DNA of 64,000 nt, taken from Erysipelotrichales bacterium (GTDB taxonomy: Bacteria; Bacillota_I; Bacilli_A; RF39; UBA660). The stretch is taken from assembly GCA_022508565.1 (NCBI GenBank), contig JAFLUY010000003.1, positions 69,599 through 133,598 on the forward strand. Direction: 5' to 3'. Position 1 is the first letter of the stretch. Each line of letters opens with the position of its first letter. Below are positions 26,742 through 59,781 of this stretch, piece after piece. The position numbers were made by a program, and so were the translations under genes. The notes under the pieces were generated by a model. That model made no database searches, had not been told where the DNA came from, and worked only from the letters and a program-made list of their open reading frames with translations.

Positions 26742-28328
26742 CTAATCTATTTTAACTTTTTCTTCTCCAAATACATCTTCAGCAAGTTTAACCGAATTTG
26801 CATCTGAAACTATAAACTCGTCTTCACTAAGAATATCATATTTTTTTGTCTTATCATAATCTTTCATAAATAATTCCCAATCATTCTTTGAAATAAATAC
26901 AAATTTATAATCTGAGCCATTATTTGATAAAAATTTGTTTTCTAATTCGTATAACTTAGAATTAGCAAGAATCTTAATACTTTCAGACTTTGTTAAAAAA
27001 ATTACATACTTATCACTCACAACCTGAGGTATTGCTTTAGAAACAATATTTAATAAATCAACTATATTTTCACTTTTTAAATTATTTATAAAATCTTTCC
27101 ATATTTCACTAAAAGACACTTTAAATTCCTTAGTACAGTTTACAAAAGTATTATTTATTCTAACTTTTATAAACTCTTCAGAAATCAAGTACTTTTGGGA
27201 ATTTTTATTATCATTTAACATATTGTTTACATCAATTTTAGTGTCAACTCCAATTATTTCCCGGGAAATAATTTGATTAATATCTCTATTGGAAATTTGA
27301 TTTTCTTCATCATTAATAAATGTAATCAATTCTAATTCCAAAAGTAGATATCCATTTGAGTTTTTTCCTATCTTACTGTATAGTTCATTCAAACTTTCAA
27401 TTATTTTCTTTAATTGATTAAATGCCGCAGAAGAAATATTAGCTTTTTTCATGTTAATTGCCTTATCGATAAAATTATCTAGTATTTTATCTAAGAAAAC
27501 CTTTATATCAATACCAGTATCCTTAATTTTTCTAAGTAATAATACAAGTCCATCAATATCATTTTTAATTATGAATGTATAAAGGAGATCCAGTTCTTCA
27601 GAAGTTACAGTACCAAAATTAGATTTCAAAACATCAATGGAAATATTATCAGTGACCTTTGATAATTGGTCTAAGATACTTAGGGCATCTCGCATACAAC
27701 CTTCGCTTAAATAAGATATTTCCGTTAATGACGCATCATCATACTTTATATTTTCTGAATCACATATCTTTTTTAAGTTATCAAAAATTAATGATCTATC
27801 AATTCTTTGAAAATCAAAACGTTGGCATCTAGACAAAACAGTTATTGGTACACTTTGAATTTCCGTTGTAGCTAAAATAAATATAACATTAGCAGGAGGT
27901 TCCTCAAGTGTTTTTAATAAAGCATTCCAAGCTTGATTTGAAAGCATATGAACTTCGTCAATTATATATATTTTATATTTGCTATTAGTTGGTGCAATAG
28001 CTACATTATCGACGATTTCTCTAATATCAACTACGCTATTATTACTGGCAGCATCCATCTCAATTACATCAGGAGATGTATTAAAATTAATACAATTATT
28101 ACATTCTCCGCAAGGAATACCTGAATTTTGATTTATACAATTCAATGTTCTAGAAAATATTTTCGCTGTACTTGTCTTACCTGTACCTCTAGGGCCAGTA
28201 AATATATATGCATGAGCTATTTTATTGTTAATAATTGAATTTTTTAAAATATTTTTTATATGATCTTGACCTACTAAATCGTCAAATGTTGTAGGTCTAT
28301 ATTTTCTATACAAAACCCTGTAATCCAT
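26742..28328 (-). CDS. dnaX: DNA polymerase III subunit gamma/tau
   Basis: Walker A GPRGTGKTS, zinc module CGECNNC, DEVHML. Confidence 0.9.
   Translation of the reverse strand: MDYRVLYRKYRPTTFDDLVGQDHIKNILKNSIINNKIAHAYIFTGPRGTGKTSTAKIFSRTLNCINQNSGIPCGECNNCINFNTSPDVIEMDAASNNSVVDIREIVDNVAIAPTNSKYKIYIIDEVHMLSNQAWNALLKTLEEPPANVIFILATTEIQSVPITVLSRCQRFDFQRIDRSLIFDNLKKICDSENIKYDDASLTEISYLSEGCMRDALSILDQLSKVTDNISIDVLKSNFGTVTSEELDLLYTFIIKNDIDGLVLLLRKIKDTGIDIKVFLDKILDNFIDKAINMKKANISSAAFNQLKKIIESLNELYSKIGKNSNGYLLLELELITFINDEENQISNRDINQIISREIIGVDTKIDVNNMLNDNKNSQKYLISEEFIKVRINNTFVNCTKEFKVSFSEIWKDFINNLKSENIVDLLNIVSKAIPQVVSDKYVIFLTKSESIKILANSKLYELENKFLSNNGSDYKFVFISKNDWELFMKDYDKTKKYDILSEDEFIVSDANSVKLAEDVFGEEKVKID
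27256..27269. promoter_or_regulatory. perfect Noc-binding-site palindrome ATTTCCCGGGAAAT inside dnaX
   Basis: Exact 14-bp NBS consensus. Extended perfect palindrome TTATTTCCCGGGAAATAA at 27254-27271. Confidence 0.55.
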
Positions 28329-28363: not shown

Positions 28364-28792
28364 CTACCTTTTACATTTTAATTTAAAGAATTTTGATAAT
28401 AATTCTCTATATTTTTTTTGTTGAAAACTATAATCTTTTTCACTTACTTTTTTAAAATTTGTTTTGGCATACTCTTTTTTATAATTATACTTATCTATCA
28501 AATAATAAACATTTGCAATTCTTGATTGTTTTATTACTTCCTTACACATGCTACATGGTTCTAAATTTACATATATATCACAATCATTTAATCTCCAGTC
28601 CCCTATTTTTTTTGCAGCCTTTTTTATAGCAATTATCTCTGCATGACTAGTAATATCGTGATTTCTAGTTCTTTTATTATATGCTTTGGCGATTATTTTG
28701 TTGTTGAAAACTACAATTGCACCTACTGGTACTTCATTACGTTTATACGCTTTATTAGCTAATTTTAATAAAACATCAAAATAACAATTCAT
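28364..28792 (-). CDS. tadA: tRNA-specific adenosine deaminase TadA
   Basis: HAEIIAI ... PCSMC zinc-binding motifs. Confidence 0.85.
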   Translation of the reverse strand: MNCYFDVLLKLANKAYKRNEVPVGAIVVFNNKIIAKAYNKRTRNHDITSHAEIIAIKKAAKKIGDWRLNDCDIYVNLEPCSMCKEVIKQSRIANVYYLIDKYNYKKEYAKTNFKKVSEKDYSFQQKKYRELLSKFFKLKCKR

Positions 28793-28814
28793 TATTAATC
28801 ACCTCATAAAAAAA

Positions 28815-28886
28815 GCGCACACAAACAGAGGATAATATGGCTGCTATCTTCCGATCCTGACCAGGTTATAACATATTTGTTGCGCA
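28815..28886 (-). ncRNA. ffs: SRP RNA (small 4.5S-type, ffs/scr)
   Basis: - strand reads ...AACCTGGTCAGGATCGGAAGATAGCAGCCATA... (domain IV consensus CCUGGUCAGG..CGGAAG..AGCAGCC) closed by a GCGCA/UGCGC helix and U7. Position between tadA and gyrA mirrors Bacillus. Exact ends uncertain. Confidence 0.6.
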
Positions 28887-28942
28887 AATGTATTATAACA
28901 TAATCACGAAAAAAGGAAAAACATTTATTTAATATTCAACAA

Positions 28943-28958
28943 TGTTTCACGTGAAACA
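28943..28958. promoter_or_regulatory. parS site 1 (TGTTTCACGTGAAACA)
   Basis: Exact Spo0J parS consensus, embedded in a 26-bp perfect palindrome. Confidence 0.7.
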
Positions 28959-29041
28959 TTGTTTTAGTTACAAAATATATTATTTATTCTTGATATTTAT
29001 TGAGACCACCATTTTTTTAAGTGTTACTTTATTTTTATATA

Positions 29042-29057
29042 TGTTTCACGTGAAACA
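29042..29057. promoter_or_regulatory. parS site 2 (TGTTTCACGTGAAACA)
   Basis: Exact consensus, embedded in the about 28-bp palindrome TATATATGTTTCACGTGAAACATATATA. Confidence 0.7.
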
Positions 29058-29149
29058 TATATAAAAAAATTTAAAAATATAGTAATAATTAATATAAAAT
29101 AATAAATTTTGCTTTTAAAACTTTTAATTATTATGTTTACGAACACAAA

Positions 29150-29165
29150 TGTTTCACGTGAAACA
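29150..29165. promoter_or_regulatory. parS site 3 (TGTTTCACGTGAAACA)
   Basis: Exact consensus, embedded in the 24-bp palindrome CAAATGTTTCACGTGAAACATTTG. Confidence 0.7.
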
Positions 29166-29233
29166 TTTGCTATTGCTCATATATTATTAGAAAAAACCAT
29201 ATATATCAATACTCTAAAAATTATTTTATTCAA

Positions 29234-29249
29234 TGTTTCACGTGAAACA
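29234..29249. promoter_or_regulatory. parS site 4 (TGTTTCACGTGAAACA)
   Basis: Exact consensus in the 28-bp palindrome ATTCAATG...CATTGAAT, 16 nt past the gyrA stop. May double as the gyrA terminator hairpin. Confidence 0.7.
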
Positions 29250-29270
29250 TTGAATAAAAAAAGAAACTGA

Positions 29271-31733
29271 TTATTCCTCAGTTTCTTGAATTTCGTCTTC
29301 TTCCTCAGATTCGTCGAATTTGTCTACTAAACTAACAGTCGAAACATATTGATTATCTTTAAGGTTAATAAGTTTAACTCCTTGAGTAACTCTACCTAAC
29401 TGTGAAATTTGATCAATTGGTAAACGTATTAACATGCCTGAATCTGTAATAATCATTAAATCTATTTCATTGTTAACAACTTTATGTGCTACTAATGCAC
29501 CATTTTTGTCTGTTACACTTAAGGCTTTAACACCTTTGCTTCCACGTTTAGTCATTCTGTATTCACTAACAAATGTTTTCTTACCAAATCCATTCTTAGT
29601 AACTACTAGGATATTATCGTCTTCTTTACCAATTTCCATTCCCGTACAATAGCCAGAGTCAAGGTTAATTCCTTTAACTCCTGAGGCTGTTCTACCCATA
29701 GGTCTAACCTCATTTTCATCAAATACTACCATTCTACCAGTAGAACTTCCAAGAATAACTTTTGAACTTCCATCTGTTAGTTTAACATCAAGTAACTCAT
29801 CGTTTTCTTTTAGAGTTATAGCTATTTTACCGCTTACTCTTATATTTGCAAATTCATCTACTAGTGTACGTTTTACAATACCATTTTTAGTAGCAAATAT
29901 TAAATATTTACCTTCAGAATCTTTATTGTAAGCAACAATTGAATTAATTCTTTCATCTTTTTCAATTTGTAAAAGATTAATAATTGGTAATCCTTTTGCT
30001 TGTCTAGAGTATTCAGGAATTTCATAACCCTTAATACGATATACTTTACCTTTATTTGTAAAGAATGTTACATAGTCATGAGTCGAACAGTTAACTAAAT
30101 GTTTAACATAATCTTCTTCATTAGTAGACATACCTTTAACTCCGACTCCTCCACGATGTTGAGATTTAAATGTGTCAGATATACACCTTTTAATGTATCC
30201 TTTATCAGTTATACTAATCATTATATCTTCTTCAGGTATTAATGATTCATCATCAATGAAGTCTACAGCTGTCATATCGATGTATGTACGACGTTCATCA
30301 GCATATCTATCTTTAATTTCTGATAATTCTTCTTTAATTATATTAAGAACTAATTGATCGTTAGCCAAAATTGCTTTATATTCTTCAATTTTCTTTAATA
30401 ATTCTTCTAATTCATTAAGAATCTTGTCTTTTTCAAGACCAGTAAGTCTTCTTAAACGCATTTCTAGTATTGCTTCTGTTTGAATATCTGTTAATCCGAA
30501 TCTTTCAGATAGCGTTTGTTTAGCTTCTTCATCACTGTCAGATCCTCTAATTATCTTAACCACTTCGTCAATGTTTTCTAGTGCAATTCTATAACCATTT
30601 AAGATGTGTACACGTTCTTCTGCTCTTCCTAAATCATATTTGGTTCTTCTAATAATGATTTCTTTTTGGAACTCAATATATTTAGCAATAATCTCTTTAA
30701 GACCTAAAGTTCTAGGTTTTTGTTGATCTAACATTAAGAAATTAATACTGAAATTAGATTGTAATGTTGTTTGTTTATATAAATTGTTTAAAACTACATT
30801 AGCATTTGCATCTTTCTTAAGTGTAATTACTATTTTTACACCATTTTCTAAGTTAGTTTCTTCATGTAAATCCGCTATTCCATCAATAAGTTTATCTCTA
30901 ACAAGTTCAGCAATTCTTTGTTGGAACATCTTTTTATTTACCATATAAGGTAATTCTGTTATTACTATCAATTGATGTCCATTGCTTTCTTCTATTGCAA
31001 CTTTACCACGAAGTGTAATAGTTCCTTTTCCTGTTTCATAAGCTTTTCTTATACCTGAATTACCAAGTATAACAGCTCCTGTTGGAAAATCTGGTCCTTT
31101 TACATAATTCATTAACTCTTCAGTAGTTATATCTTGGTTGTCAATATATGCAATACATCCATCAATTGTTTCACCTAAGTTATGTGGAGGAATGTTTGTA
31201 GCCATACCTACGGCAATTCCAATTGTTCCATTAACTAAAATATTTGGAAATCTTGAAGGAATTACTGATGGTTCTGTTGTTGTATCATCAAAATTTGGTA
31301 CAAAATCAACTGTTTCCTTTTTAATATCTCTTAGTAATTCTAAAGATAATTTAGATAGACGAGCTTCTGTATAACGCATTGCTGCTGCTCCATCGCCATC
31401 CATTGAACCGAAATTACCATGTCCTTCAATTAATACATTTCTATATGAGAATGGTTGAGCCATACGTACCATTGCATCATATATTGCAACATCTCCGTGT
31501 GGATGATAATTACCCATAACCTCTCCAACCGTTTTAGCTGATTTTCTAAAAGGTTTATCAGGTGTATAACCATTTTCATACATCGAATATAAAATTCTTC
31601 TGTGAACAGGTTTTAAACCATCTCTAAGGTCAGGTAAAGCACGAGCAACAATTACACTCATTGAATAATCTAAAAATGATTCTTTAATTTCAGTAACAAT
31701 ATTCTTTTGTACTATATTTCCTGTATTTGCCAT
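29271..31733 (-). CDS. gyrA: DNA gyrase subunit A
   Basis: 820 aa, active-site region [10 protein letters not shown]-terminal beta-pinwheel repeats and acidic tail. Confidence 0.95.
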
Positions 31734-34864: not shown

Positions 34865-35308
34865 TTATTTTTTTCTTAAATAATGTTCTAATTTTGTGGA
34901 TCTTAAAATTTGATTATTTATTATATTTAAACTAACATTAAAATCTATTAATATTCCGTTAGTAAATTCTATTACAGTAACCTTTTTTAACTTATTATAA
35001 TGTACTTTACTTATATTAGATAAATTAACCCATGCTACCTCTTTTAATCGGGTAGAGCAAGTTGGAAAGAATATTAAATTTTCTTTTTCACTTATTAAAA
35101 TAGGACACTTATAATTACTACCAACTAATTTTTCCGCACTTTTTTGTCTTCCATCAATTGTACTGCCATTTTTAATACAATTAATATTAACGATAACATT
35201 TGGTCTTTTATTTATAATGAATATTTCATCAGCTTCATAAACTATAGATTTATTATTATCGCATGGAATTATCGCTAAAGTCTTAGAATTAATAGTATAA
35301 TCCACCAA
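34865..35308 (-). CDS. ComK-family protein (competence transcription factor-like), TTG start
   Basis: Compared with B. subtilis ComK by recall: TLAIIPC/ATIAVLPE, LIFFPTCSTR/IFLFPTLSSTR, KEVAWVNLSNISKVHYNK.../QCGWISHVHVKEF... TTG start preceded by AGGAGGTG. Confidence 0.55.
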   Translation of the reverse strand: MVDYTINSKTLAIIPCDNNKSIVYEADEIFIINKRPNVIVNINCIKNGSTIDGRQKSAEKLVGSNYKCPILISEKENLIFFPTCSTRLKEVAWVNLSNISKVHYNKLKKVTVIEFTNGILIDFNVSLNIINNQILRSTKLEHYLRKK

Positions 35309-36657: not shown

Positions 36658-38007
36658 TTAATTAACTATTCTATCTTTAATTTCTTTAATTTGTTTTCTT
36701 AAATCTTCATTTTTATTATATTCTTCATTTATTTTATCACAAGCATGTATTACAGTAGCATGATCGCGATTAAATTCTAATCCAATTCTTTCAATTGTTT
36801 CTTCTGTAGTCATCTTACATAAATACATAGCAACTTGTCTTGCATGATTTATATTTGCTGTTCTTTTTTTGCTTTTTAAATTTTCTACAGTTAAATCATA
36901 ATATTCAGCAATAGCTTTTTGAATTTTGCCTATATTATTAGTTATATATAATGAATTACCAAAATAATCTTTTAAAGCATCTTGTGCAAATTCTAAATTA
37001 ATTTCTTTAGGAGAATACATTGCTGTAACAGCATATAATCTATTAATAGCGCCCTCAAGATGTCTAACATCACTTTCAGAATTATTTGCCATATATTCTA
37101 ATACTTCAGGTTTTATAAATTGAGATACTTCATGACCGGCAATTTTATTTTTTATAATTTTTAATCTTAATTCATAATCGGGTGGGGTAATATTTACTGT
37201 AATTCCCCAAGAAAATCTAGTTTTTAAACGATCTTCTAATACCTGTAAATCATCCGGCGATCTATCAGAACTTATTATTATTTGTTTTTTTCCTTCATGT
37301 AATGAATTAAAAGTATTAAAGAATTCATCTTGAGTTTTAGTAGCTCCTCCAAAAAATTGAATATCATCAATAATCAATACATCGATATTGCGATATTTAT
37401 TTTTGAATTTTTCTTCAAGTTCGTATTTATCTTCATCTGTTTTATATCTTCTAGTAAAATCTTCAACAAATGTTTCACTTGTAACATATAAAACTGATTT
37501 TTCTGAATTATCTTTAATATAATTACCAATAGCATGCATCAAATGTGTTTTACCAAGACCACTTTTACCATATATAAATAGGGGATTATAAAGTTTCCCT
37601 GGCTGTTCAGCTACAGATAATCCTACAGTTGCTGCTAATCTGTTTGTATCGCCAATCACAAAATTATCAAAAGTATAACTCGGATTTAAATTTGAATTAT
37701 TTTCCTTAAATTTAGGAATATCGACTTTTTCTTCAATAATTACTGGTTCATCTTGTACTACTTCATCAGGAGTAACTATTTCATATGAATAAGCTTCATC
37801 AGAACAATTAGCAATAGCTTCTTCAATAACATCATCATAATAAGATAGAAGATGTTGTTTAATATAATTAGAATTAACTTTTATTATTAAAGTACCATTT
37901 TCTATATTAGTTAATTCTGTATCTTTGAACCAGATATTAAATGAAATATTAGATACTTTTGAATAAATATAATCAAGACATTTTTTCCAAAAATTTTCCT
38001 TGTCCAT
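36658..38007 (-). CDS. dnaA: chromosomal replication initiator DnaA
   Basis: AAA+ GKSGLGKTHL, DDIQF, C-terminal DNA-binding domain. First gene of the - strand block at the strand switch. Confidence 0.95.
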   Translation of the reverse strand: MDKENFWKKCLDYIYSKVSNISFNIWFKDTELTNIENGTLIIKVNSNYIKQHLLSYYDDVIEEAIANCSDEAYSYEIVTPDEVVQDEPVIIEEKVDIPKFKENNSNLNPSYTFDNFVIGDTNRLAATVGLSVAEQPGKLYNPLFIYGKSGLGKTHLMHAIGNYIKDNSEKSVLYVTSETFVEDFTRRYKTDEDKYELEEKFKNKYRNIDVLIIDDIQFFGGATKTQDEFFNTFNSLHEGKKQIIISSDRSPDDLQVLEDRLKTRFSWGITVNITPPDYELRLKIIKNKIAGHEVSQFIKPEVLEYMANNSESDVRHLEGAINRLYAVTAMYSPKEINLEFAQDALKDYFGNSLYITNNIGKIQKAIAEYYDLTVENLKSKKRTANINHARQVAMYLCKMTTEETIERIGLEFNRDHATVIHACDKINEEYNKNEDLRKQIKEIKDRIVN

Positions 38008-38349
38008 TTAACCACCCTGTTCTAGTCTAATTTCTAATTAAATTTTATAACTTTTTTGTCGAAAAAGTAAAGAAAAATGTCGTAATAAAAACTATCAACA
38101 GACTTTTCGACAATTTTTTCAACAATTTATACACTATAATATAATGGATTAAATGAGTTTTCAACATTTTCAACAAATTTTTAAAAATTTATTTCAACAA
38201 GTTATAAAAAGTTTTAAACATTAAACGTTGATATTGTTGAAAAGTGTATTAATAACCTATTTTATAAGGAAAAGTAGGGAATAGTTATTGACTTATAAAT
38301 TTTAATATAATATAATAACCTTGCTTTGAGATGTGGAGGTGGAGCATTT
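38008..38349. promoter_or_regulatory. oriC region (dnaA-rpmH spacer) with repeated TTTTCAACA / TTTTCGACA 9-mers; contains the rpmH promoter
   Basis: At least 5 copies of TTTTCAACA-like and 2 inverted TTTTCGACAA/TTGTCGAAAA, plus one ACTATCAACA. TTGACT-17-TATAAT at 38288-38316. Gene-strand switch occurs here. Confidence 0.6.
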
Positions 38350-41797: not shown

Positions 41798-42361
41798 ATG
41801 TTAGAAAATATTAGTAAAGTACATTATAAAATACTAGAATTCTTACCATTTGTAGATTATATAAAATCATTAGATAACTTTAAATGTACACTAATTTCTG
41901 ATGAAGAAAAATATGATTGGAGAACTATAGAATATCAAATTGAAAATGAGTTTATAAAAATTTTAATATTAAAAGATAAAGAAAAAGAATGGGTTGGTGT
42001 TTATAGATCTAATAGCCAAAAAGTATGTTATGAACAAATAGATTTTTTAATATATACTGAAGAGAATAGAAAATATAATGGTCTAGAATACAATAATGTT
42101 ATTAGGTATTCTGCTCATTTTGATGATGAAAAATATTCAAAATTAGTAACTTCAGCATTCACATATTTAGACAATGAATATTTAACAGGATGGAGACAAA
42201 AAAGAAAAATAGCAATAGAAGATTTATCTAAGATTATAACAGATGAAATGAATTTATCTGAATTAATAATGAGAGCAGAACAAAAATTATTAGATTTCTA
42301 TGAAGCAATTAATTTAGAAGAAGGAGAAGTACATAAATTAGTACTAGGATATGACGAATAA
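41798..42361 (+). CDS. hypothetical protein inserted between mnmE and mnmG
   Basis: 187-aa ORF, 4 nt after mnmE with AGGGAAG RBS, 17 nt before mnmG. No recognisable motif. Confidence 0.55.
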   Translation: MLENISKVHYKILEFLPFVDYIKSLDNFKCTLISDEEKYDWRTIEYQIENEFIKILILKDKEKEWVGVYRSNSQKVCYEQIDFLIYTEENRKYNGLEYNNVIRYSAHFDDEKYSKLVTSAFTYLDNEYLTGWRQKRKIAIEDLSKIITDEMNLSELIMRAEQKLLDFYEAINLEEGEVHKLVLGYDE

Positions 42362-45007: not shown

Positions 45008-46150
45008 ATGAAAATGGAATCGCAAATTCAATTAATTAATCTTGATAATATTATACCTAATAGATTTCAACCTAGACTTCAATTTGATGAAGCATCATTA
45101 AATGAATTAGCTAATTCTATAAGAGAACATGGCATTATTCAACCTTTAGTTTTAAGAAGAGTTGCAAACAAATTTGAAATAATAGCAGGAGAAAGAAGAT
45201 ATAAAGCTGCAACAATTGCTGGTCTTACAAGTGTTCCTGCAATAATTGCTGATTTAGATGATAATGAATCAGCAGAAGTAGCAATTATAGAAAATACTCA
45301 TAGGAGATCTTTATCACCAATCGAAGAAGCGAAATCCTATAAAAAATTATTAGATAGAAGATATGTTACTCAAGAACAACTTGCAAAAAGACTTGGAACA
45401 AGTCAATCAAATGTTGCTAATAAGATTAGATTATTAACACTTGATGAATCTGTTCAAGATGCTCTTTTAAAAGATAAAATAAGTGAAAGACATGCAAGAA
45501 GTTTACTTAGAGTAACAGATAAATATAAACAAGTAGATTTATTAAATAAGACTATTAATGAAAGATGGCCAGTAAGACTACTTGATGAAGAAATTGATAA
45601 AGTGTTAGGAACCTATCAAAAAGGAGCTACTACCACAGGAGCAATAAATGCAAATAGTAGAATAGATATAGATGTTGATAATGTAATGAATAATTCAATT
45701 GATATTTTATCTGAAAATGATGGAGAACCAGTAAATTATCAATATACAGCACGCGATACTGAACCAACAAAGAAAAGAGATTCATTATTCTTTAATAATC
45801 TAGAAAACGAATCAGTGAATATGGATCCAACTTTAAATTTTGGTTTTAATCCATTTAAAAACAGCGTAACAACTGATAATGCTGTAGATAGAGACATTGA
45901 AAAAGATTATGACCTACTAGAGTTAGAAGAAGATGAATACGACGAAGAAAAAGACATTGTAGAAGAAACTGCTCCAGTTGAGGCTCAACAAGTAATTGTT
46001 GAAGAAGAATATAAAACCAAAGATGATGTAATATTAGGAATAAAAAAAGTAATTGCTAATGCCAAGAAAAATGAAGTTGGAGTAGATATAGAAGAATTTA
46101 ATTTTGATAACTTCTACCAATTTATTATTAGAATAAATGATGACAAATAA
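45008..46150 (+). CDS. noc: ParB-family protein, Noc-like by HTH and C-terminus, with long acidic linker
   Basis: IPNRFQPR, GERRYKAA box, HTH GTSQSNVANKIRLL (Noc-type Q/K, not Spo0J R/H), KISERHARSL, C-terminus EEFNFDNFYQFIIRI like Noc EEFEEYIQLTIRI. Sits right after rsmG as noc does in Bacillus. No parA/spo0J follows. Confidence 0.7.
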   Translation: MKMESQIQLINLDNIIPNRFQPRLQFDEASLNELANSIREHGIIQPLVLRRVANKFEIIAGERRYKAATIAGLTSVPAIIADLDDNESAEVAIIENTHRRSLSPIEEAKSYKKLLDRRYVTQEQLAKRLGTSQSNVANKIRLLTLDESVQDALLKDKISERHARSLLRVTDKYKQVDLLNKTINERWPVRLLDEEIDKVLGTYQKGATTTGAINANSRIDIDVDNVMNNSIDILSENDGEPVNYQYTARDTEPTKKRDSLFFNNLENESVNMDPTLNFGFNPFKNSVTTDNAVDRDIEKDYDLLELEEDEYDEEKDIVEETAPVEAQQVIVEEEYKTKDDVILGIKKVIANAKKNEVGVDIEEFNFDNFYQFIIRINDDK

Positions 46151-46151: not shown

Positions 46152-46175
46152 AAACTAGTTTTAAACTAGTTTTCT
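46152..46175. terminator. bidirectional terminator (palindrome AAAACTAGTTT|AAACTAGTTTT)
   Basis: Perfect palindrome between convergent genes. Confidence 0.5.
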
Positions 46176-46711
46176 TTATTTTCTGCTTCGTTATTAACAT
46201 TAGGTGTATTTGTTTGATTATTCTTATTTAGATATTTTTCAAAAATACTATCTTTAGAAACAACAACAGTATTGTCAAATTCAGTTTTCTTATCGAATCC
46301 AGCAATAGCAGTTACTATGCTTCCAAAAATAACCCCACAAACTACCCATCCAGTATCTTTGTGTAGCTTTTTACTTAAATTAATAAATAAAGCAACATTT
46401 CCAATAATCATTGCTAAATAAGCAACCCAAGTAAAATATCCCAAGAATGGAATAATTCCACTTACTATTGCGAAAATGCTTTGAGCAATAATTAATAGGA
46501 ACCAATACCAGTTAAGTCCAGCAATTTCAACTAATACCCAAGTATTGTAAAATGGGATAATAGCCTTCCATCCCTCAACTCCAGCTTTAGTATAAAACTT
46601 GTAATTTCCGATTAAACAAACAACTGCAACTGCAATAACAATTAATACAAGAATTACTAAGAAAATACCTAGCCCAACAAGTAGTCCAGTTAAACTTTCA
46701 TTCACTGTCAT
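46166..46711 (-). CDS. hypothetical integral membrane protein (4 TM) with N/E-rich tail
   Basis: Hydrophobicity pattern only. Confidence 0.45.
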   Translation of the reverse strand: MTVNESLTGLLVGLGIFLVILVLIVIAVAVVCLIGNYKFYTKAGVEGWKAIIPFYNTWVLVEIAGLNWYWFLLIIAQSIFAIVSGIIPFLGYFTWVAYLAMIIGNVALFINLSKKLHKDTGWVVCGVIFGSIVTAIAGFDKKTEFDNTVVVSKDSIFEKYLNKNNQTNTPNVNNEAENKEN

Positions 46712-46773
46712 ATAATCTATACTTCCTTTCTTGACTTTATTATACCAAAAAAAGAAAATAAATCCATAAAAAA

Positions 46774-48699
46774 CTAACTAATGTATGCAAGTTCTGTACC
46801 ACTTAAAAAGTAAAATAGAGATTTTGATTTACTATCATATTTTCCAGAAATTGGTTCCATTGGAACAGCAACCACATTTTCTGGTTTTTGATACCAAACA
46901 TCTTCTAAAGTTTCTTCATAACTTTCCATTGTATCTAACCATATATTTTTTATAATACTTGAATATGTTTTTGGTGTATCTTTATTTAAATCATTACCAG
47001 CCCAAACAATTGCTAGAGCTTCTTTATTATAACCAACTATCCAATAATCATTATCAGTAGTACCACTTTTCAAAGCATATTTATGACTTAATTTTCCGTT
47101 TAAATATAAGACAGTTGGAGAATAATAATCCACAAAATTATAATTATATGTATTGGTCATCATTTCATTAAGAATATAGGTAATTGATTCATCTAATACT
47201 TGTTTATCTTCAACCTTTTTTTCATATAATAAATTACCATTCATATCTTCAACTCTTCTAATAAAGAATAAATCGTGACTGATTCCACCAGAAGCGAGAG
47301 TCGTATAAGCCTCTGCATAATCCAACATATTTATCTCTTTAGCGCCTAATGCTAATGAAGGAATAGCTAGTAAGTCTTCATTCAATCCGCATGTTTTTAA
47401 TGTATCAACTAACGCATTTTCACCTAAGAAAAGATGCGTTTTAACAGCATAGATATTATCGGAGTAAGCAAGTGCTGCTGCCATAGTAATCTCTTTGTTA
47501 CCATATGTATCTCCATAATTAGTAGGGGAATAAGTTTTATTTTCTCCAAATACAAAGGAAGTCTTTTCAGATTTAAAAGTAGAAGCCGTAGTCATTCCGT
47601 TATTAAGAGCAGCATAATATAAAAAAGGTTTAATTGTCGATCCAACTTGTCTTTTTGCTTGGGTAACGCGATTATACTGACTAATAGCGTAGTTTTTACC
47701 CCCTGCTAGCGCAATAACACCACCAGTATTAGGATTAACAACAATACTAGCTATTTGGTTATCGTCTTCTATTACATTATTATTTATACTTTCTTCCATT
47801 ACTGTCTGAGTATCTATATCCAAGTTTGTAAATATTCTCAATCCACCATCATCAAGTAAGCTTTTTGGTATGCTTTTTATACTTTTTAATTCTGATATTA
47901 CTGCATCTTGATAATACATTAAAGTATCTAAATTATTAGTTTGGTGCTTTCCATATAACTCTAAATTTTCAAAATCGAGTGAGTTATATTCACTACTTGT
48001 AATAATATTTCCATCTTTTAAAGCAGTAGAAACCACATAGGCTCTTTTAAATGCAGCATCTTTATTACTAATTGGGTTGTAATTATTTGGGCTTTTAGGA
48101 ATTCCTGCCAATATAATAGCTTCTTCCATAGTTATATTAGATATGTCTTTATTAAAATAATACTGAGCTGCATCCTTAACACCATATATTCCTTGTCCAA
48201 AATATATTGTATTTAAATAGCCTTCTAATATTTCATCTTTTTGATAATGAGTTTCTAACCTTATAGTCAAGAAAGCTTCTTCAATTTTTCTTTCCCATGT
48301 TTGATCAAATTCCAAGAATAGATTTTTTACATATTGTTGAGAAATAGATGAAGCCCCACCAACAATTTTTCTAGCTTTTATATTTAAATAAAGACTTTTA
48401 ATAATTCTTAGAATATCAAAACCTTTATGTTGATAAAAATGTTGGTCTTCTATATTTATAATGTATTTAACAAGTTTTTCATCAATGTTATCAAGGGATA
48501 CCCACTCTGAATTATTTGATCCTTGATAAATAACATTGTCTTTATTGTCATAAATGTAATATGAATTAGCTAAATTTAATGAAATTGGCTCAGTGAAATA
48601 TGCAAAAACATATACTCCTATTATAGATATAACTCCTAAAACGAAGAGGAATATTCCAAATTTAAATAGCCATTTTAAATATTTCATTAAATCACCCAT
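46774..48699 (-). CDS. class A penicillin-binding protein (GT51 transglycosylase plus transpeptidase)
   Basis: EDQHFYQHKGFD, GGSSISQQ, STIKP, SDN, KSGTT motifs. N-terminal TM anchor. Confidence 0.8.
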   Translation of the reverse strand: MGDLMKYLKWLFKFGIFLFVLGVISIIGVYVFAYFTEPISLNLANSYYIYDNKDNVIYQGSNNSEWVSLDNIDEKLVKYIINIEDQHFYQHKGFDILRIIKSLYLNIKARKIVGGASSISQQYVKNLFLEFDQTWERKIEEAFLTIRLETHYQKDEILEGYLNTIYFGQGIYGVKDAAQYYFNKDISNITMEEAIILAGIPKSPNNYNPISNKDAAFKRAYVVSTALKDGNIITSSEYNSLDFENLELYGKHQTNNLDTLMYYQDAVISELKSIKSIPKSLLDDGGLRIFTNLDIDTQTVMEESINNNVIEDDNQIASIVVNPNTGGVIALAGGKNYAISQYNRVTQAKRQVGSTIKPFLYYAALNNGMTTASTFKSEKTSFVFGENKTYSPTNYGDTYGNKEITMAAALAYSDNIYAVKTHLFLGENALVDTLKTCGLNEDLLAIPSLALGAKEINMLDYAEAYTTLASGGISHDLFFIRRVEDMNGNLLYEKKVEDKQVLDESITYILNEMMTNTYNYNFVDYYSPTVLYLNGKLSHKYALKSGTTDNDYWIVGYNKEALAIVWAGNDLNKDTPKTYSSIIKNIWLDTMESYEETLEDVWYQKPENVVAVPMEPISGKYDSKSKSLFYFLSGTELAYIS

Positions 48700-48753
48700 T
48701 TATATAATGAGACAAAATAAAAAAAATATGATAAAATACACCCAGGTGAAAAC

Positions 48754-49092
48754 ATGAATAAACTAACTTTTAAATTACTAAGCAATAATAAAGAAATAAT
48801 TAATGAACAAATTAACTATCTAAAACAAGAGAATATTATTAAATTTAAGATTAACGATGACAATTACGAATATGATGAAAAAAATATTATTTTAGTTAAA
48901 AGAGATTCAGAAAAAGAACTTACAATAAATTTTAAAGAAAAAGTAATAATTATTAATTTATTAAGTAATAATATAAAAATAGATTATCCAATGGATAAAA
49001 GTGATGCAAACATAAATAACAATATAGTTATTTTAAATTATACTTTAGAAAGTGATAAAACTGTTGAAAATACGATAATAATAGAATTTTAA
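48754..49092 (+). CDS. hypothetical protein (112 aa)
   Basis: ORF with TGATAAAAT extended -10 upstream. Confidence 0.4.
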   Translation: MNKLTFKLLSNNKEIINEQINYLKQENIIKFKINDDNYEYDEKNIILVKRDSEKELTINFKEKVIIINLLSNNIKIDYPMDKSDANINNNIVILNYTLESDKTVENTIIIEF

Positions 49093-49203
49093 TATTTATA
49101 TTGACATAAGAAGATTATATGATAAAATTATTATTGTTTTAAGTATCAATGACATTTTTAAATACACTTACATATAATGTTTTTGTGATAAGGAGGAAAT
49201 TAT

Positions 49204-49644
49204 ATGAAATCAATAAAATTATCGGCTGAAGAATTAGAACAAATGTCATACGCAGATGTTGCTAATTTAGTTTTGAAAGAAAAAGGTAAAAAAATGCCAA
49301 TCCAAGACTTATTTAAACAAGTAATTAAAATAATGGGTTTACCAGAAAGTTACTTTGAAAATAAAATAGGTGATTTCTTTGGATTATTATCAACTGATCA
49401 AAGATTTATAATGTTAGAAAAAGGATTTTGGGATTTAAAATCAAATCATTCTACTAAAGTTGTTATTGAAGATGAAGAAGAAGACGAAGAAATTGTAGTT
49501 GAAGATGATGATACTGATTTAGAAGAAGAACAAGAAGAGGAAGAGATCAACTATGATGATGACACTGTAGATGATGATGACGATGAAGACGATTTAAAAG
49601 ATTTAGTAATAATGGATGAAAACGACGAACAAGAAATGATGTAA
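49204..49644 (+). CDS. rpoE: RNA polymerase delta subunit
   Basis: N-terminal HARE-HTH-like domain ([19 protein letters not shown]...) followed by poly-D/E tail. Two upstream sigma-A-like promoters. Confidence 0.7.
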
Positions 49645-49673
49645 GTGACTTCTTAAAAATAGGAGAAATTAAA

Positions 49674-50729
49674 ATGATAGAAAGATTAGAAATAATTTAT
49701 AATAGATATAAAGAGTTAGAAAATGAACTTGTTAATCCAGAAATACTAAATGATTATGCTAAGATGACTAAACTTTCAAAAGAAAAAGCTTCTTTAGAAA
49801 GTACTGTTGAAAAATATCATGAATACAAGAAGATAACATCAGAAATTGAAGAGTTAAAATCTTTAGTTAATGACCCTGATATGGGCGAAATGGCATCTTT
49901 AGAATTAGAAGAAAAACAAGCAAGACTTCCGGAATTAACACATGAGTTAGAAATTCTTTTAATACCAAAAGATGAAAATGATGGAAAAGATATTATTATG
50001 GAAATTCGTGGCGCTGCCGGGGGAGATGAAGCAAATATTTTTGCTGGTGACCTTTATAGAATGTATACGCGATATGCTGAAAAACAAGGATGGAAAACTG
50101 AAGTTATAAACGAAGTTGAAGGTACAGCTGGAGGATTTTCACAAGTAGAATTTTCCATAAAAGGCGACAATGTTTATTCAAAATTAAAATTTGAGAGCGG
50201 ATCGCATCGTGTTCAAAGAGTTCCAGAAACTGAATCTCAAGGAAGAATTCAAACTTCTACAGCAACCGTTGCTGTAATGCCAGAAGCAGAAGATATTGAC
50301 TTTGAACTTGATATGAATGAAATTAGGATAGATATTACACGTTCTTCCGGATGTGGAGGTCAAGGCGTTAATACAACAGACTCTGCTGTTAGATTAACAC
50401 ATATTCCTACTGGTATAATTGTTTATAGTCAAACAGAACGTTCACAAATAAAAAATAAGGAAATAGCATTAAAGATAATGAAAACAAGATTGTATGATCT
50501 TAAATTGAGAGAAAAAGAGGCCGCAGAAGGTGCTGAAAGAAGAAATAAAATTGGTACCGGAGATAGAGCTGAAAAAATAAGAACATATAATTACCCACAA
50601 AACAGGGTTACTGACCATCGTATAGGTTTCAGTGTTATGAACCTAGACAAGGTAATGGATGGAGACCTAGATGCAATCATAGAGGCTTTAATTACTGAAG
50701 ATCAAAGGATTAAACTTGAAAACAGCTAA
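49674..50729 (+). CDS. prfA: peptide chain release factor 1
   Basis: GGQ motif ([17 protein letters not shown]) and RF1-type [20 protein letters not shown]. Confidence 0.9.
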
Positions 50730-51456
50730 GCCTTCATATTTAACTCAAAATGATTGGGAATTACTTAATAAGAAATATAAAAATATGCACAGGATAATAA
50801 GAAAACTAAAAAAGAATTATCCTGTGCAATATTTAATTGGAAATGTTAATTTTTATGGGTATGAAATAATAGTTAATAAAAATGTCCTAATACCACGTTT
50901 TGAAACCGAAACCTTAGTTGAAAAAACAATTGAATATATTAAAAAATATGAGTTAACAAACACTAATGTTTTAGATATTGGAACTGGTTCAGGCTGTATA
51001 CCAATCGCTTTAAAAAAAGAAATTCCCACCCTTAACATAACATCAATTGATAAATCTAAAAAAGCACTAAAGATTGCAAGAAAGAATATAAACAAAAATA
51101 AAGTAAATATTAATCTAATAAATGAGAATATTTTTAAGTATAAACCACTAAATAAATATGGAGTTTTAATTAGTAATCCTCCTTATTTAAGTGTAGATGA
51201 AAAAATTGATAAACAATGTAAATTCGAACCAAAATCTGCACTATTTGCTAAACATAACGGTTTAATATTTTATGAACATATAATCAAATCTAGTAAAAAA
51301 TACATGTGTGAAAAATCAATTTTAGCTTTTGAAATAGGATACCTTCAAGGAAAGTATTTAAAAAAATTAGCAAAAGAATATTATCCTAACGCTAAAATAA
51401 CAATAGAAAAGGATTTGGCAAATAAAGATAGATATTTATTTATAATTAATGAATAA
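50716..51456 (+). CDS. prmC: release factor glutamine methyltransferase PrmC/HemK
   Basis: [10 protein letters not shown] and NPPY, overlaps the prfA stop. Confidence 0.8.
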
Positions 51457-51501
51457 TTTAATGTACTTTATCCCATTTAATAAATAGAGAGGATAAAGAA
51501 T

Positions 51502-52014
51502 ATGAAAAATGTACTAATAGCAATTGCTATTATAATTATAGTTGTACTTAACAATAAAGTAGAAAATATAATAATTCCAGAAAGCTCAATTAGATTTAGA
51601 ATTATTGCTAATTCTAATACGATTGAAGACCAAATAATAAAGAATAATTTAAGTAAAGAATTAACAAAATATATAACTGATTTAGTAATTAATGCATCTT
51701 CAAAAAAAGAAGCAAATGACATTATCAATAGTAATTATAAAAATATTGAAAAATATATTGATAACTATTTAGATATAAACAATATTAAAACAACATATAA
51801 CTTATCTATTGGAAAAAATTATTTTGATGCAAAAAGCTATAAAGGAGTAAAATATAATTCAGGTTATTATGATTCTATAGTTTTATCACTTGGAAATAAG
51901 AAAGGAATTAACTGGTGGTGTGTCATGTATCCACCACTATGTTTAATTGATCAAAGTGAAGATGTAGAATATACGACATTGGTAAAAGATATGCTAAATA
52001 AATACAAAATTTAG
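51502..52014 (+). CDS. spoIIR: stage II sporulation protein R
   Basis: Signal/TM N-terminus and hallmark NWWCVMYPPLC. Confidence 0.75.
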   Translation: MKNVLIAIAIIIIVVLNNKVENIIIPESSIRFRIIANSNTIEDQIIKNNLSKELTKYITDLVINASSKKEANDIINSNYKNIEKYIDNYLDINNIKTTYNLSIGKNYFDAKSYKGVKYNSGYYDSIVLSLGNKKGINWWCVMYPPLCLIDQSEDVEYTTLVKDMLNKYKI

Positions 52015-52102
52015 CATATTTTTTTGTGAAAAAATATTAATATAAATTGTGATAGTGAATATAGATATGGTATAATATATTAAGATCCAAGGAGGGAAAA
52101 AA

Positions 52103-53566
52103 TTGAATAAAATTACACTTGAAGAATTAAACAATGTTGTTCCTGTTTTGGCAGCAAACAATGTAGCACCTAATGAATTATTTGATTATTTCCGAGTAGT
52201 ATCAATAAATAATAAAAAATATGAAATTGAGGCAAAAAACCCATTATATTTTTTGTCTTATAATACTGATAAAGAAGTTCGAGATGGGTGGTTTATAAAC
52301 AAGTTCGATTTAAGACAATACGTTAACGAGATTATAAAAGATCATCCAAATGCTACAATAGTTGTTGAAGAGAATATGGTTGATCAAATTGAAGATCATA
52401 ATGCCAAATTTATTGTGGTTAAAAGTATACCTGAAACAATAGATAGATTATTTGAATACTTTAAAAATAAGTCTCACGCTAAAGTAGTTGTCGTAACAGG
52501 AAGCGTTGGTAAAACTACAGCAGTTGGTCTAATTGAATCAGTATTAAAAAATAAATATAACACTATGAGAATTTATTCTAAAAGAATAACTCCAATTATC
52601 TTAAAAGCAAATATAATTAACTTTTTAAATGATGAAGTTGATTATGTTATTTTAGAAAATTCTTTATATTATCATGATCATGTACAAGTATTAAGTGATT
52701 TGTTAAAACCGGATATTTCATGTATGTTAAATATAGAATCTTGTCATCTTGGAGTAGATAAATTACAAACTTTAGACGATATATGTATTTGTAAGGCACC
52801 AGTGCTAAAACATGCAAAAATGGGGATTATTAACGAAGAAGATGAACACTTAAAAAATATAAACTTAGAAGATGGAATAGTTGAATATAACGGAGACCCT
52901 CTATTTAAAACAAATTTAGAATGTTTAGATAGAGCAAAACCTAGTGAAATAGCAATAGAGGGTAATAATTTTGTCATCGATAATAAAATAACTATTACAC
53001 CATTTATTTTAAGTGATTTAGCAAAAACTCAATATTTATATGCTTATAAAATCGGAAAATATCTAGGGTTAACTAATGAGGAAATTGAAAAAGGCATGAA
53101 AGAATACACACCTGTAGAAAATAGATTAAATAAAAAAGTAGCTTTCGGTCGTGAAATAATTTTCGATGGAGATATAACTTATTATGAAAGAATGAAAGCT
53201 TTATCGGAAATAAAATATGAAAATGCTTACCTAGTTATAAGAAAAGCAGGATGTAGTGAAAGAAGCGAAAGAGTAGAAAATATAGTTGATTACTTTGATA
53301 AATTTAAAAAAGTATTTATTTTTGATGATATTGAATATTTAGATGAGTTAAAAAATCATCCAAATGTTGAAGTTGTTAGCAATCATGATTTTTTAAACAA
53401 TCTTGAAGGTGTAATAATTTATCACTACAGTGGATATTACCGAGTATGGCATACATTTGATGAAAATAATTTAAATATCTACGATAGAGATATCTATAAA
53501 ATCAACAAAATATCAACAGAAGAACCACCAACACCAATTGGTCATAGAAGAATACTAGAAAGTTAA
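52103..53566 (+). CDS. Mur ligase family protein (divergent, MurF-like), TTG start
   Basis: VVVTGSVGKTT P-loop in Mur-ligase context, 487 aa. Not in a mur cluster. AAGGAGGG RBS. Confidence 0.5.
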   Translation: MNKITLEELNNVVPVLAANNVAPNELFDYFRVVSINNKKYEIEAKNPLYFLSYNTDKEVRDGWFINKFDLRQYVNEIIKDHPNATIVVEENMVDQIEDHNAKFIVVKSIPETIDRLFEYFKNKSHAKVVVVTGSVGKTTAVGLIESVLKNKYNTMRIYSKRITPIILKANIINFLNDEVDYVILENSLYYHDHVQVLSDLLKPDISCMLNIESCHLGVDKLQTLDDICICKAPVLKHAKMGIINEEDEHLKNINLEDGIVEYNGDPLFKTNLECLDRAKPSEIAIEGNNFVIDNKITITPFILSDLAKTQYLYAYKIGKYLGLTNEEIEKGMKEYTPVENRLNKKVAFGREIIFDGDITYYERMKALSEIKYENAYLVIRKAGCSERSERVENIVDYFDKFKKVFIFDDIEYLDELKNHPNVEVVSNHDFLNNLEGVIIYHYSGYYRVWHTFDENNLNIYDRDIYKINKISTEEPPTPIGHRRILES

Positions 53567-53576
53567 GGATGAATAT

Positions 53577-54278
53577 ATGAAAAAAATACTATTGTTGCAC
53601 GGATGGAATTATAAAAATTATACAAAGTTAACAGAAGAAAAAGATGCTTGGCATAATCGAAAAAAGTTTGTCAGTGAACTTGAAAAGAATTATGAAGTTT
53701 ATAAATTAAATTTTCCTGGCTTTTGTAGTGAAAAAGAGCCAAAAAAATCATGGAATTTATCTGACTTTGCTAAATATGTTCACGACTATCTTGAAACTAA
53801 TAACTTAAAAGTAGATTATGTTTTAGGTTATTCATTTGGCGGAGCTGTGGCAGTTACTTATAATCGTTTATACGATTCTAAACAAAAACTAATATTAATA
53901 TCTCCTGCCATTGTAAGAAATTATGATAAGTCAAAGAAGTTTATTAAAACCCCAGCATTCTTAACTCCAATTAGAAACTTAATTAGAAATTCATATTTAA
54001 TTAATATCGTAAAAACTAATGAAATGGTTTATGGAACAAAATTTTTAAGAGATACATATCAAAGTATAGTAAGAATTGAATTAATAGATGAAATAGAAAA
54101 AATTGATCCAAATAGATTAAAAATCATATATGGAACAGAAGACAAAATGGTTAATCCAAGACTCGTTGAATCTAAAGTATTAGATAAATATAAAAAATGT
54201 ATTTATTTCATAGAAGGCGGAGGCCATGATATAGCTAATACTCATACAAAAGAATTAATAGATATAATAGGTAAATAA
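53577..54278 (+). CDS. alpha/beta hydrolase fold protein
   Basis: GYSFGG nucleophile elbow, C-terminal GGGHD. Confidence 0.55.
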   Translation: MKKILLLHGWNYKNYTKLTEEKDAWHNRKKFVSELEKNYEVYKLNFPGFCSEKEPKKSWNLSDFAKYVHDYLETNNLKVDYVLGYSFGGAVAVTYNRLYDSKQKLILISPAIVRNYDKSKKFIKTPAFLTPIRNLIRNSYLINIVKTNEMVYGTKFLRDTYQSIVRIELIDEIEKIDPNRLKIIYGTEDKMVNPRLVESKVLDKYKKCIYFIEGGGHDIANTHTKELIDIIGK

Positions 54279-54375
54279 GTATATTTACCTGTTTTCATTT
54301 AATTTACACACAATATTGAATAAAAAAGGCATTAATAATATAATTATAATAGTTATAAATCGAATGGATGATAAT

Positions 54376-55629
54376 ATGAAAAAAATAATAATTGAAGGTA
54401 GAAAAAAAATAAGCGGAACAATTAAAATTAGTGGTGCCAAAAATTCAATAGTAGCACTAATACCTGCTACTGTTTTAACTAATGGTAAATGCGTAATAAA
54501 AAATGTTCCGGATATAACAGATGTAAAAACACTTTTAGAAATAATGAAGGACTTAGGTTCTGTTATTACTTTTGAAAATGACACTTTAACAATAGATAAT
54601 AAAAATTTACAGAATAAACTTATAGATGAAAAACACGCATCTAAATTAAGAGCCTCTTATTATTTTATGGGTTCTTTAATTGGAAAGTATCATAAAGTTT
54701 CAATTGCTTACCCTGGAGGATGCGTTATTGGATCAAGACCTATTGATATTCATATAGATGCTTTTAAGAAAATGGGTATTGATATAATTGAAAATGGTTC
54801 CATTTTTGATATGAGTGTTGATGAGTTAAATGGAATTCAAATATATTTAAATTTCCCATCTGTAGGTGCAACAATTAATATAATGTTGGCATCTGTTCTT
54901 GCTAAAGGGACAACAGTAATCGAAAATGCTGCAAAAGAGCCAGAAATTTCTAATATCGCATCTTTCTTAAATTCAATGGGTGCTCGTGTATTTGGTGCGG
55001 GAACATCAAGAATTGTTATTGAAGGAGTAGAGTCTTTAGGAGATGGCTTTGTTGAAACTATACCAGATAGAATTGAAACAGGAACTTATGTAATAATCGG
55101 AGCACTACTTGGTAATAACTTAAGAGTTGAAAATGTTATTCCTACTCATATTGAAGCTTTACTATATAAACTAAAAGAAGCGGGAGTTAAATACTCATTA
55201 GATGGCAATTCAATCGTTGTATCAGCTACTGAAAACTTAAAACCAATTAATGTAAAAACATCAGTTTATCCTGGTTTTCCAACAGACTTAGGCCAACCAA
55301 TCTCAACATTTTTAACTCAATGTAATGGAGAGTGTTTATTTGAAGAAACTATCTATGAAAATAGACTACGTCATGTTCCTCATTTAAACGCAATGGGAGC
55401 AAATGTCAAAGCTTTCGATAATCGTGCAATAATAACAGGTAAAACTCCATTACACGGAAGAAAAGTAAAGGCTACTGACCTTAGAGCAGGTGCAAGTATG
55501 TTAGTTGCTGGTCTTATTGCTGATGGAGTAACTGAAATACAAAATATTGAGCATCTACTACGTGGCTATGAAAGAATTGTTGATAAATTATCTCAAGTAG
55601 GCGTAAATATCAAGTTGATAGATGAATAG
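54376..55629 (+). CDS. murA: UDP-N-acetylglucosamine 1-carboxyvinyltransferase
   Basis: MKKIIIEGRKKISGTIKISGAKNS... matches the MurA N-terminus. The ORF-track start at 54316 adds a non-homologous 20-aa extension. Confidence 0.85.
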   Translation: MKKIIIEGRKKISGTIKISGAKNSIVALIPATVLTNGKCVIKNVPDITDVKTLLEIMKDLGSVITFENDTLTIDNKNLQNKLIDEKHASKLRASYYFMGSLIGKYHKVSIAYPGGCVIGSRPIDIHIDAFKKMGIDIIENGSIFDMSVDELNGIQIYLNFPSVGATINIMLASVLAKGTTVIENAAKEPEISNIASFLNSMGARVFGAGTSRIVIEGVESLGDGFVETIPDRIETGTYVIIGALLGNNLRVENVIPTHIEALLYKLKEAGVKYSLDGNSIVVSATENLKPINVKTSVYPGFPTDLGQPISTFLTQCNGECLFEETIYENRLRHVPHLNAMGANVKAFDNRAIITGKTPLHGRKVKATDLRAGASMLVAGLIADGVTEIQNIEHLLRGYERIVDKLSQVGVNIKLIDE

Positions 55630-55651
55630 ACACTTTCTATTGATTTTTTAG

Positions 55652-55680
55652 AATTTTATGCTATACTAAACAAGTAATGA
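55652..55680 (+). promoter_or_regulatory. promoter TTGATT-17-TATACT for rpmE
   Basis: Followed by GGAAGGAGG RBS. Confidence 0.45.
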
Positions 55681-55723
55681 ATTTCTATAACTCACATTGG
55701 GTTATGGCGGAAGGAGGATTTAG

Positions 55724-55924: not shown

Positions 55925-55925
55925 T

Positions 55926-55955
55926 ATTAAACTAGCTAATGCTAGTTTTTTTTAA
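55926..55955 (+). terminator. intrinsic terminator after rpmE
   Basis: AAACTAGC-TAAT-GCTAGTTT then T8. Confidence 0.65.
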
Positions 55956-55990
55956 TAGTATTATTTGCTATAATAATAATAGGTGATAAC

Positions 55991-59750: not shown

Positions 59751-59781
59751 TACTTTCTTTTTCTATGCTATAATTTAAGTA

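Follow-up and report, generated by a model that had tools for sequence, protein, structure and literature searches.

Four perfect parS sites in one intergenic array near the replication origin of an uncultured Erysipelotrichales bacterium

What are the four palindromes that stand between gyrA and the gene of the small signal recognition particle (SRP) RNA in an uncultured gut bacterium of the Erysipelotrichales, and which protein would bind them? They lie in a 64,000-nucleotide stretch of contig JAFLUY010000003.1 (assembly GCA_022508565.1), called here the window, and each of them contains an exact copy of the 16-mer TGTTTCACGTGAAACA, which is the same 16-bp palindrome as the parS consensus (TGTTNCACGTGAAACA) of the Spo0J/ParB partition system of Bacillus subtilis. 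The sites match this consensus, are close to the replication origin and are conserved at the orthologous position in related genomes, and very probably they are chromosomal parS centromere sites. As a group they would make up a compact array for ParB loading, bounded by the gyrA terminator and the SRP RNA promoter and situated about 9 kb from oriC. Such an array places the centromere of this bacterium, while the concept of the bacterial centromere itself is left unchanged.

The parS array between gyrA and the SRP RNA

The four exact 16-mers start at positions 28943, 29042, 29150 and 29234 of the window (parS-1, 28943-28958; parS-2, 29042-29057; parS-3, 29150-29165; parS-4, 29234-29249; none is assigned to a strand), with centre-to-centre spacings of 99, 108 and 84 bp, so that all of them fall within 320 bp. 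In shuffled sequence, 0.01 matches with up to two mismatches would be expected in the window, against the four exact copies observed. An 18-mer, ATGTTTCACGTGAAACAT, is common to the four sites, and around it the perfect palindromes extend through arms that are specific to each site, reaching 26 bp in parS-1 (28938-28963), 36 bp in parS-2 (29032-29067), 24 bp in parS-3 (29146-29169) and 36 bp in parS-4 (29224-29259), the left arm of the last one reusing the U run of the gyrA terminator. The spacer that contains them (28897-29270, 374 bp) is bounded by the gyrA stop codon on the upstream side (gyrA, 29271-31733, minus strand) and by the 5' end of the SRP RNA gene (ffs or scr; 28800-28896, minus strand, 56.5 bits with Rfam) on the downstream side. 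It holds three open reading frames (ORFs), all of them spurious and of at most 53 aa, two of which begin on a parS site read as MFHVKH. The DNA between the sites is AT-rich and mutually unrelated. An initial annotation of the window had already reported four identical parS copies at these positions, their spacings and the lack of ORFs, all of which were reproduced by exact matching and re-measurement; it had also placed each site in a perfect palindrome of 22-28 bp, and here the longer palindromes are real but their lengths were misjudged. A fifth parS-like site, at 37471 and with two mismatches, was discarded as a coding coincidence, since it falls inside dnaA, where it coincides with the conserved peptide YVTSETF of DnaA, and the relatives lack it.

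The distance to oriC, which had been put at about 9 kb, is sustained by two marks, because the sign of the GC skew flips at ~38 kb and a cluster of DnaA boxes (38116-38243, no strand) lies upstream of dnaA (36658-38007, minus strand).

The conservation of the array was followed in two scans. The first one, of genomes (one per species), required two perfect parS sites 81-111 bp apart, and the second, of metagenomes, required a parS site followed within 1-31 nt by a Noc-binding site (NBS), the target of the ParB paralogue Noc, so that all of its contigs are selected for parS-NBS adjacency; 120 loci and 120 contigs were listed, respectively, both numbers being lower bounds. Among the matches listed, about 130 low-GC relatives, whose GyrA is 49-71% identical to that of the window, carry 1-10 perfect parS sites in the same interval, gyrA-[array]-SRP RNA-tadA-dnaX. 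The genome scan contributes 15 of its 120 species loci, low-GC metagenome-assembled genomes (MAGs) labelled Bacilli, Bacillota, Mycoplasma or Clostridium, which have the synteny of the window (gyrA-[array]-tadA-dnaX-recR), a GyrA 59-71% identical, 3-10 perfect parS sites each and, in 14 of the 15, the SRP RNA at the same place. The metagenome scan contributes about 115 of the 120 contigs listed, with a GC content of 0.19-0.31. In these relatives the sites can be found on either side of the SRP RNA-tadA unit, and the clade has its parS cluster on the side of oriC where gyrA lies and not beside parB. Perfect 16-mers that are kept at one orthologous intergenic position across genomes as divergent as these are strong evidence of a sequence-specific binder under selection, and their retention in so many relatives fits a functional centromere and ParB-loading array.

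Tandem duplication is clear in some relatives: one locus (L047, 5384-5894) contains ten parS units with a 55-bp period, nine of them perfect and one with one mismatch, and another (L087, 2679-3276) contains six units with a period of ~107 bp. Expansions of this kind are what would be expected if the sites were relics, or a selfish and recently amplified repeat without a current binding protein, an explanation that nevertheless appears extremely unlikely. The spacers of the window are unrelated to one another, as are those of the other relatives' arrays, so the sites are not recent duplicates, and this, together with their variable spacing, argues that each parS is maintained by selection on its core. 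Perfect cores also persist at 49-71% GyrA identity within AT-rich intergenic DNA that is otherwise unalignable, and neither the 64-kb window nor the regions flanking the related loci gave a further exact copy, so that in this DNA the 16-mer is not a scattered repeat.

The position of the array, behind one gene and in front of another, raises a different alternative, namely that the palindromes act in transcription or at the RNA level (as terminators of gyrA, as insulators or as operators of the SRP RNA or tadA promoters) and that their match to parS is incidental. parS-4 does follow the gyrA stop and forms a strong hairpin that is flagged as terminator-like by a terminator scan, with the tail TAATTTTTAG 0-2 nt past the stem, and in 12 of 14 relatives the annotated 5' end of the SRP RNA has a parS site 26-66 nt upstream. 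But gyrA already possesses a canonical intrinsic terminator (29261-29287, minus strand), a 10-bp stem spanning the stop codon and followed by U7 (T7 in the DNA), which precedes the parS-4 hairpin and is the better terminator of the two; a terminator role for parS-4, as had been suggested in the initial annotation, is therefore unnecessary. In that annotation the last palindrome was also placed 16 nt after the gyrA stop codon, whereas the core of parS-4 ends 21 nt and its extended palindrome 11 nt away from it, with the separate hairpin and its U7 in between. The parS-4 palindrome is thus a second hairpin just behind the terminator, and no U tract comes directly after it or after any other of the extended palindromes, in which, on both strands, a T run precedes the stem and an A run follows. 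At the other end of the spacer, the SRP RNA has an extended -10 element (TGtTATAAT) at ~28892-28900, and the centre of parS-1, some 65 bp before the point where the RNA starts, falls outside the core promoter. Furthermore, what is conserved is exactly the ParB-binding core of 16-18 bp, while the arms vary by site, and in many other phyla clusters of this 16-mer lie next to parB genes. Taken as transcription elements, the palindromes would have a very small chance of being rightly explained, and a parS centromere array remains the favoured interpretation.

The extension of the palindromes beyond the core is itself frequent. At least 5 bp on each side were found in 26 of 81 parS sites of the window and the 15 clade loci, vs ~3 expected from shuffling of the flanks, and in 53 of 354 sites of the remaining loci of the genome scan (the L002-L121 set), vs ~2 expected; these extended palindromes are probably not terminators, because of the same order of T run, stem and A run.

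On the basis of established ParB biology, a canonical ParB of the Spo0J type (Arg at 173, small residue at 201), whose gene would lie outside the window, would bind each 16-mer as a dimer; the dimers would close into cytidine triphosphate (CTP) clamps and slide into the flanking DNA, building a single dense partition complex that covers the origin region. This complex would serve to recruit SMC-ScpAB and, in the presence of a ParA, to drive origin segregation, and four adjacent loading sites could raise the rate of ParB loading at a single place. ParB binding, spreading and SMC loading at the array are all expected by analogy with the systems in which these steps were worked out.

As for the compactness of the array, which had been taken as remarkable, it turned out to be ordinary. 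At least 120 species have tight pairs of perfect parS sites; many phyla are represented, including, among the matches listed, Actinomycetota, Proteobacteria, Clostridia, Bacilli, Patescibacteria and Spirochaetes. Outside this clade, at least four perfect sites fall within 320 bp in 14 of the 105 listed loci. Several listed loci have 7-10 perfect sites within 1 kb, and 3-10 within 1 kb are found in many phyla. Compact arrays of perfect parS are therefore a common arrangement, and the dispersed sites of B. subtilis represent one style among others; the array of the window, by itself, is one more instance of the known parS clusters. From the proposal of a concentrated centromere or condensin-loading locus, what stands is the canonical, near-origin parS cluster conserved in about 130 relatives, and what falls is its exceptional tightness. 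A preferred spacing of ~100 bp between sites was also considered and rejected as an artefact of the 81-111 bp search pattern, given that the metagenome set, which was not selected on this spacing, has a broad distribution of 35-250 bp; the 84, 99 and 108 bp of the window have, therefore, no special meaning.

Compared with B. subtilis, the window has the identical 16-bp palindrome, an origin-proximal location and the Firmicute layout dnaA-dnaN-recF-gyrB-gyrA. In B. subtilis, however, the parS sites stand singly and are dispersed across hundreds of kb, with one inside spo0J, whereas here there are four within 320 bp of one spacer; the soj-spo0J genes, which follow noc in B. subtilis, are not beside the noc-like gene of the window. 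Several ParB-loading sites near oriC are a feature shared with the clustered parS of other bacteria: Pseudomonas aeruginosa, with four parS sites closest to oriC (PMC4368675), and Corynebacterium glutamicum and Caulobacter, in which parS clusters were studied (PMC7083940, PMC5815017). In most other lineages among the matches listed, the cluster adjoins mnmG-rsmG-parB (parAB), while that of the window lies across oriC from there, within the gyrA-ffs-tadA-dnaX interval. Awareness of a gyrA-side parS cluster helps annotation and the choice of SMC-loading loci.

The Noc-like protein and the presumed cognate ParB

The window contains, as had been stated before, a single gene of the ParB family. This gene (45008-46150, plus strand) comes directly after rsmG and codes for a protein of 380 aa with ParB_N and HTH_ParB domains, whose sequence is that of MCH5166822.1 from an Erysipelotrichales bacterium MAG. 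The earlier assignment of Noc-type specificity residues to this protein is also upheld: in an alignment with Spo0J and Noc, the specificity positions read Q, K, T, R in the window protein, Q, K, K, R in Noc and R, H, T, G in Spo0J, so that it carries Q173, K179 and R201, and the window does contain a perfect NBS. In a deep mutational scan, Jalal et al. (2020) established that R173 is invariant among parS binders, whose residue at 201 is small, that Q173 and R201 switch the specificity, and that with these two a single K or R at 179 or 184 suffices for NBS binding (PMC7383237). According to these rules, the protein is predicted to be an NBS binder and not a parS binder, and, as judged from its residues, it would not be the cognate binder of the array but would recognise the NBS found in dnaX.

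The search for a canonical ParB was carried out by six-frame phmmer of the window, using as queries the B. subtilis Spo0J, Soj and Noc sequences, and it recovered the Noc-like gene and neither a canonical ParB nor a Soj/ParA in the 64 kb. Canonical ParB or Soj genes are also missing next to the noc-like gene in four relatives, in which rsmG and the noc-like gene are followed by unrelated genes, and from ~135 related loci. These three absences count against a ParB-loading function of the array. No gene for a binder was found inside the array in 135 loci either, where the array spans hold tadA and spurious ORFs that begin on parS (MFHVKH). Close-homologue searches and exhaustive searches of representative sequences returned the Noc-like subfamily alone among the matches listed, with Q173, K or R at 179 and R201 (a Q-K/R-x-R pattern) in all of the 262 members that could be classified. 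Because the Noc-like protein accounts for one of the two site specificities, a canonical, parS-specific ParB is likely to be encoded elsewhere in the genome, outside the window. In two cultured Erysipelotrichia, ParA and ParB are present at the level of COGs, a level that does not separate ParB from Noc.

In Staphylococcus aureus, noc adjoins rsmG with no soj adjacent to it and with spo0J far away. The layout of the window is possibly the same as in the ParA-less ParB systems of S. aureus and Streptococcus pneumoniae, two species that lack ParA according to a 2026 preprint, which assigns a functional Noc to S. aureus only.

The Noc-like protein is, on the other hand, atypical. It has the NBS-type residues and an NBS site, but it scores 260.2 bits with the curated NCBIfam model TIGR04285, below the cut-off of 315, and it does not have the N-terminal helix carried by the Noc proteins of S. 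aureus and B. subtilis. In B. subtilis, this amphipathic helix (aa 1-15) is membrane-targeting, highly conserved and required for function (PMC4331003). The window gene has no N-terminal extension (a stop codon is located 5 codons upstream of the ATG), and its NRFQPR box is found at around residue 17, vs around 40 in B. subtilis Noc. The whole subfamily (P0001-P0268) is devoid of the N-terminal peptide of ~23 residues that both Spo0J and Noc carry and, therefore, of a membrane helix of the B. subtilis type. The C-terminal domain of the window protein is Noc-like, and the protein has an acidic linker, whose variability explains the range of lengths in the subfamily (227-821 aa). The linker contains a motif of the form (N/G)(K/R)FFNxLE(D/E), for example NKFFNFLEDE, in 104 of 148 sequences by a loose pattern match, and it reads SLFFNNLENE in the window protein. 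It resembles the N-terminus of B. subtilis Noc, SRFFGLGEKE, and this FFNxLE-type motif may be a relocated membrane anchor. In the closest members of the subfamily, the conserved ENLQRE box reads ENTHRR.

parS and NBS sites at the same locus

The perfect NBS of the window, ATTTCCCGGGAAAT, is located at 27256-27269 (no strand), inside dnaX and within a 20-bp palindrome (27253-27272), and it includes the only CCCGGG of the 64 kb; one copy was observed, against 0 expected. The combination of this exact NBS with a ParB paralogue carrying Q173, K179 and R201 is a likeness to the Noc-NBS system of B. subtilis. The array of the window is itself purely of parS, with the NBS 1.7 kb away. An NBS is found at the same dnaX position in 20 of 87 related dnaX genes, and that of the window encodes IISREII through TCC and CGG codons, which are rare in this genome of 26% GC, pointing to selection at the DNA level.

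In many relatives the two kinds of sites are much closer, the parS arrays of the gyrA-ffs-tadA-dnaX locus having perfect NBS (22-bp consensus AATTATTTCCCGGGAAATAATT) interspersed among their sites (L003, L052, L061, L064 and L118, and the metagenome loci L129-L248). An NBS is inside the parS array in 6 of the 15 clade loci that were not chosen for it, often 22-28 bp start-to-start from a parS, and exact NBS are absent from the 105 listed genome-scan loci outside the clade. Nearly all the matches of the metagenome scan, among the 120 contigs listed, are at the gyrA-ffs-tadA-dnaX locus. All of the clade DNA sampled is origin-proximal, and its metagenome part was selected for parS-NBS adjacency; in the metagenome contigs, 269 of 302 NBS are within 300 bp of a parS span, an area of 116 kb in total, and the other 33 are spread over the remaining 621 kb. 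The distances between each NBS and its nearest parS, measured from centre to centre, have peaks at 25-29 and 35-38 bp and minor clusters around 45 and 55 bp, a period of about 10 bp at half-integer helical turns. In the small unbiased set they are 23-27, 37, 45-47 and 56 bp.

In 903 kb of clade DNA, 439 perfect parS and 317 perfect NBS 16-mers (TATTTCCCGGGAAATA) were counted, and among these 756 sites no symmetric parS/NBS hybrid was found, and one chimeric combination of half-sites. Two discrete classes of perfect palindromes, without hybrids, therefore mean that two DNA-binding specificities are under selection. This bears on a further alternative, in which the array would be bound by the Noc-like paralogue itself, as the only ParB-family protein of the clade, recognising both parS and NBS with no canonical ParB at all. 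Its gene is indeed the sole one of the family seen in the window and in all the related origin regions inspected, and parS and NBS do lie side by side at phased distances in the relatives. Yet every classified member of the subfamily has Q173 and R201, residues that exclude parS binding, for which R173 is invariant (Jalal et al.), and two perfect site classes are not what a single protein of dual specificity would be expected to maintain. Such double recognition is considered improbable, and a canonical ParB acting on the parS sites, with the Noc-like protein on the NBS, is preferred.

In B. subtilis the NBS are scattered around the chromosome (PMC4331003), in contrast to those of this clade, which, in the origin-proximal DNA sampled, concentrate in or next to the parS array. 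The half-turn phasing of NBS and parS (~26, 36, 46 and 56 bp), the loss of the N-terminal membrane helix and the conserved linker motif suggest, tentatively, that the gyrA-ffs-tadA-dnaX interval could be a dedicated dual centromere in this Erysipelotrichales-like clade, in which ParB-parS complexes and complexes of the Noc-derived paralogue with NBS are assembled side by side. The paralogue would then have exchanged nucleoid occlusion across the genome for a role specific to the origin, which may consist of anchoring the origin to the membrane or of replacing the function of ParA, and the four parS and the dnaX NBS of the window would be one instance of this hub. No description of such parS-NBS co-clustering was found in a literature search, which was non-exhaustive. 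The clade-wide hub and its atypical Noc-like protein could matter more than the array as a lead: if the co-clustering holds genome-wide, it would represent a natural example of a ParB paralogue that acquired a different DNA specificity without leaving the centromere, and the role of Noc-type proteins outside Bacillales would become directly testable.

The origin region and its genes

The window, which matches about 70.4-134.4 kb of the 173,039-bp ENA contig k141_1147617, has a GC content of ~26%. The minus-strand genes follow one another, away from the origin, in the order dnaA, dnaN, a gene with a ComK domain, recF, gyrB, gyrA, the array, the SRP RNA, tadA, dnaX, ybaB and recR, the tadA-type deaminase gene (28364-28792, minus strand) coming after the SRP RNA and a T run. 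The canonical DnaA box, TTATCCACA, was dropped as a marker of oriC, as it is not enriched in the window and neither of the intergenic regions next to dnaA contains it. A variant box, TTTTCAACA, marks the origin instead, with 17 copies in the window vs 2.6 expected, four of which form the cluster upstream of dnaA in which the GC skew switches, so that oriC appears to use this variant.

The ComK-domain protein (PF06338, 146 aa; 34865-35308, minus strand) is encoded between dnaN and recF, an interval that in B. subtilis holds the small S4-like gene yaaA, and it occupies the same position in two relatives (L124 and L127). On the plus side, beyond oriC, one finds in succession rpmH, rnpA, yidC, jag, mnmE, an unknown ORF, mnmG, rsmG and the ParB-family gene. 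The ORF between mnmE and mnmG (41798-42361, plus strand, 187 aa) has no match in Pfam or NCBIfam, and its counterpart has 184 aa in L124 and is lacking in L127.

The genes after the ParB-family gene are unrelated ones, namely a DUF5684 gene and one for a class A penicillin-binding protein (PBP), and the rest of the window (46166-64000) contains prfA, prmC, spoIIR, murA, rpmE and a SpoIID-domain gene, all of which are about 400 kb from the origin in B. subtilis. A rearrangement after the noc-like gene presumably displaced soj-spo0J. The sporulation genes present are spoIIR, the SpoIID-domain gene, spoVG, yabG and yabP.

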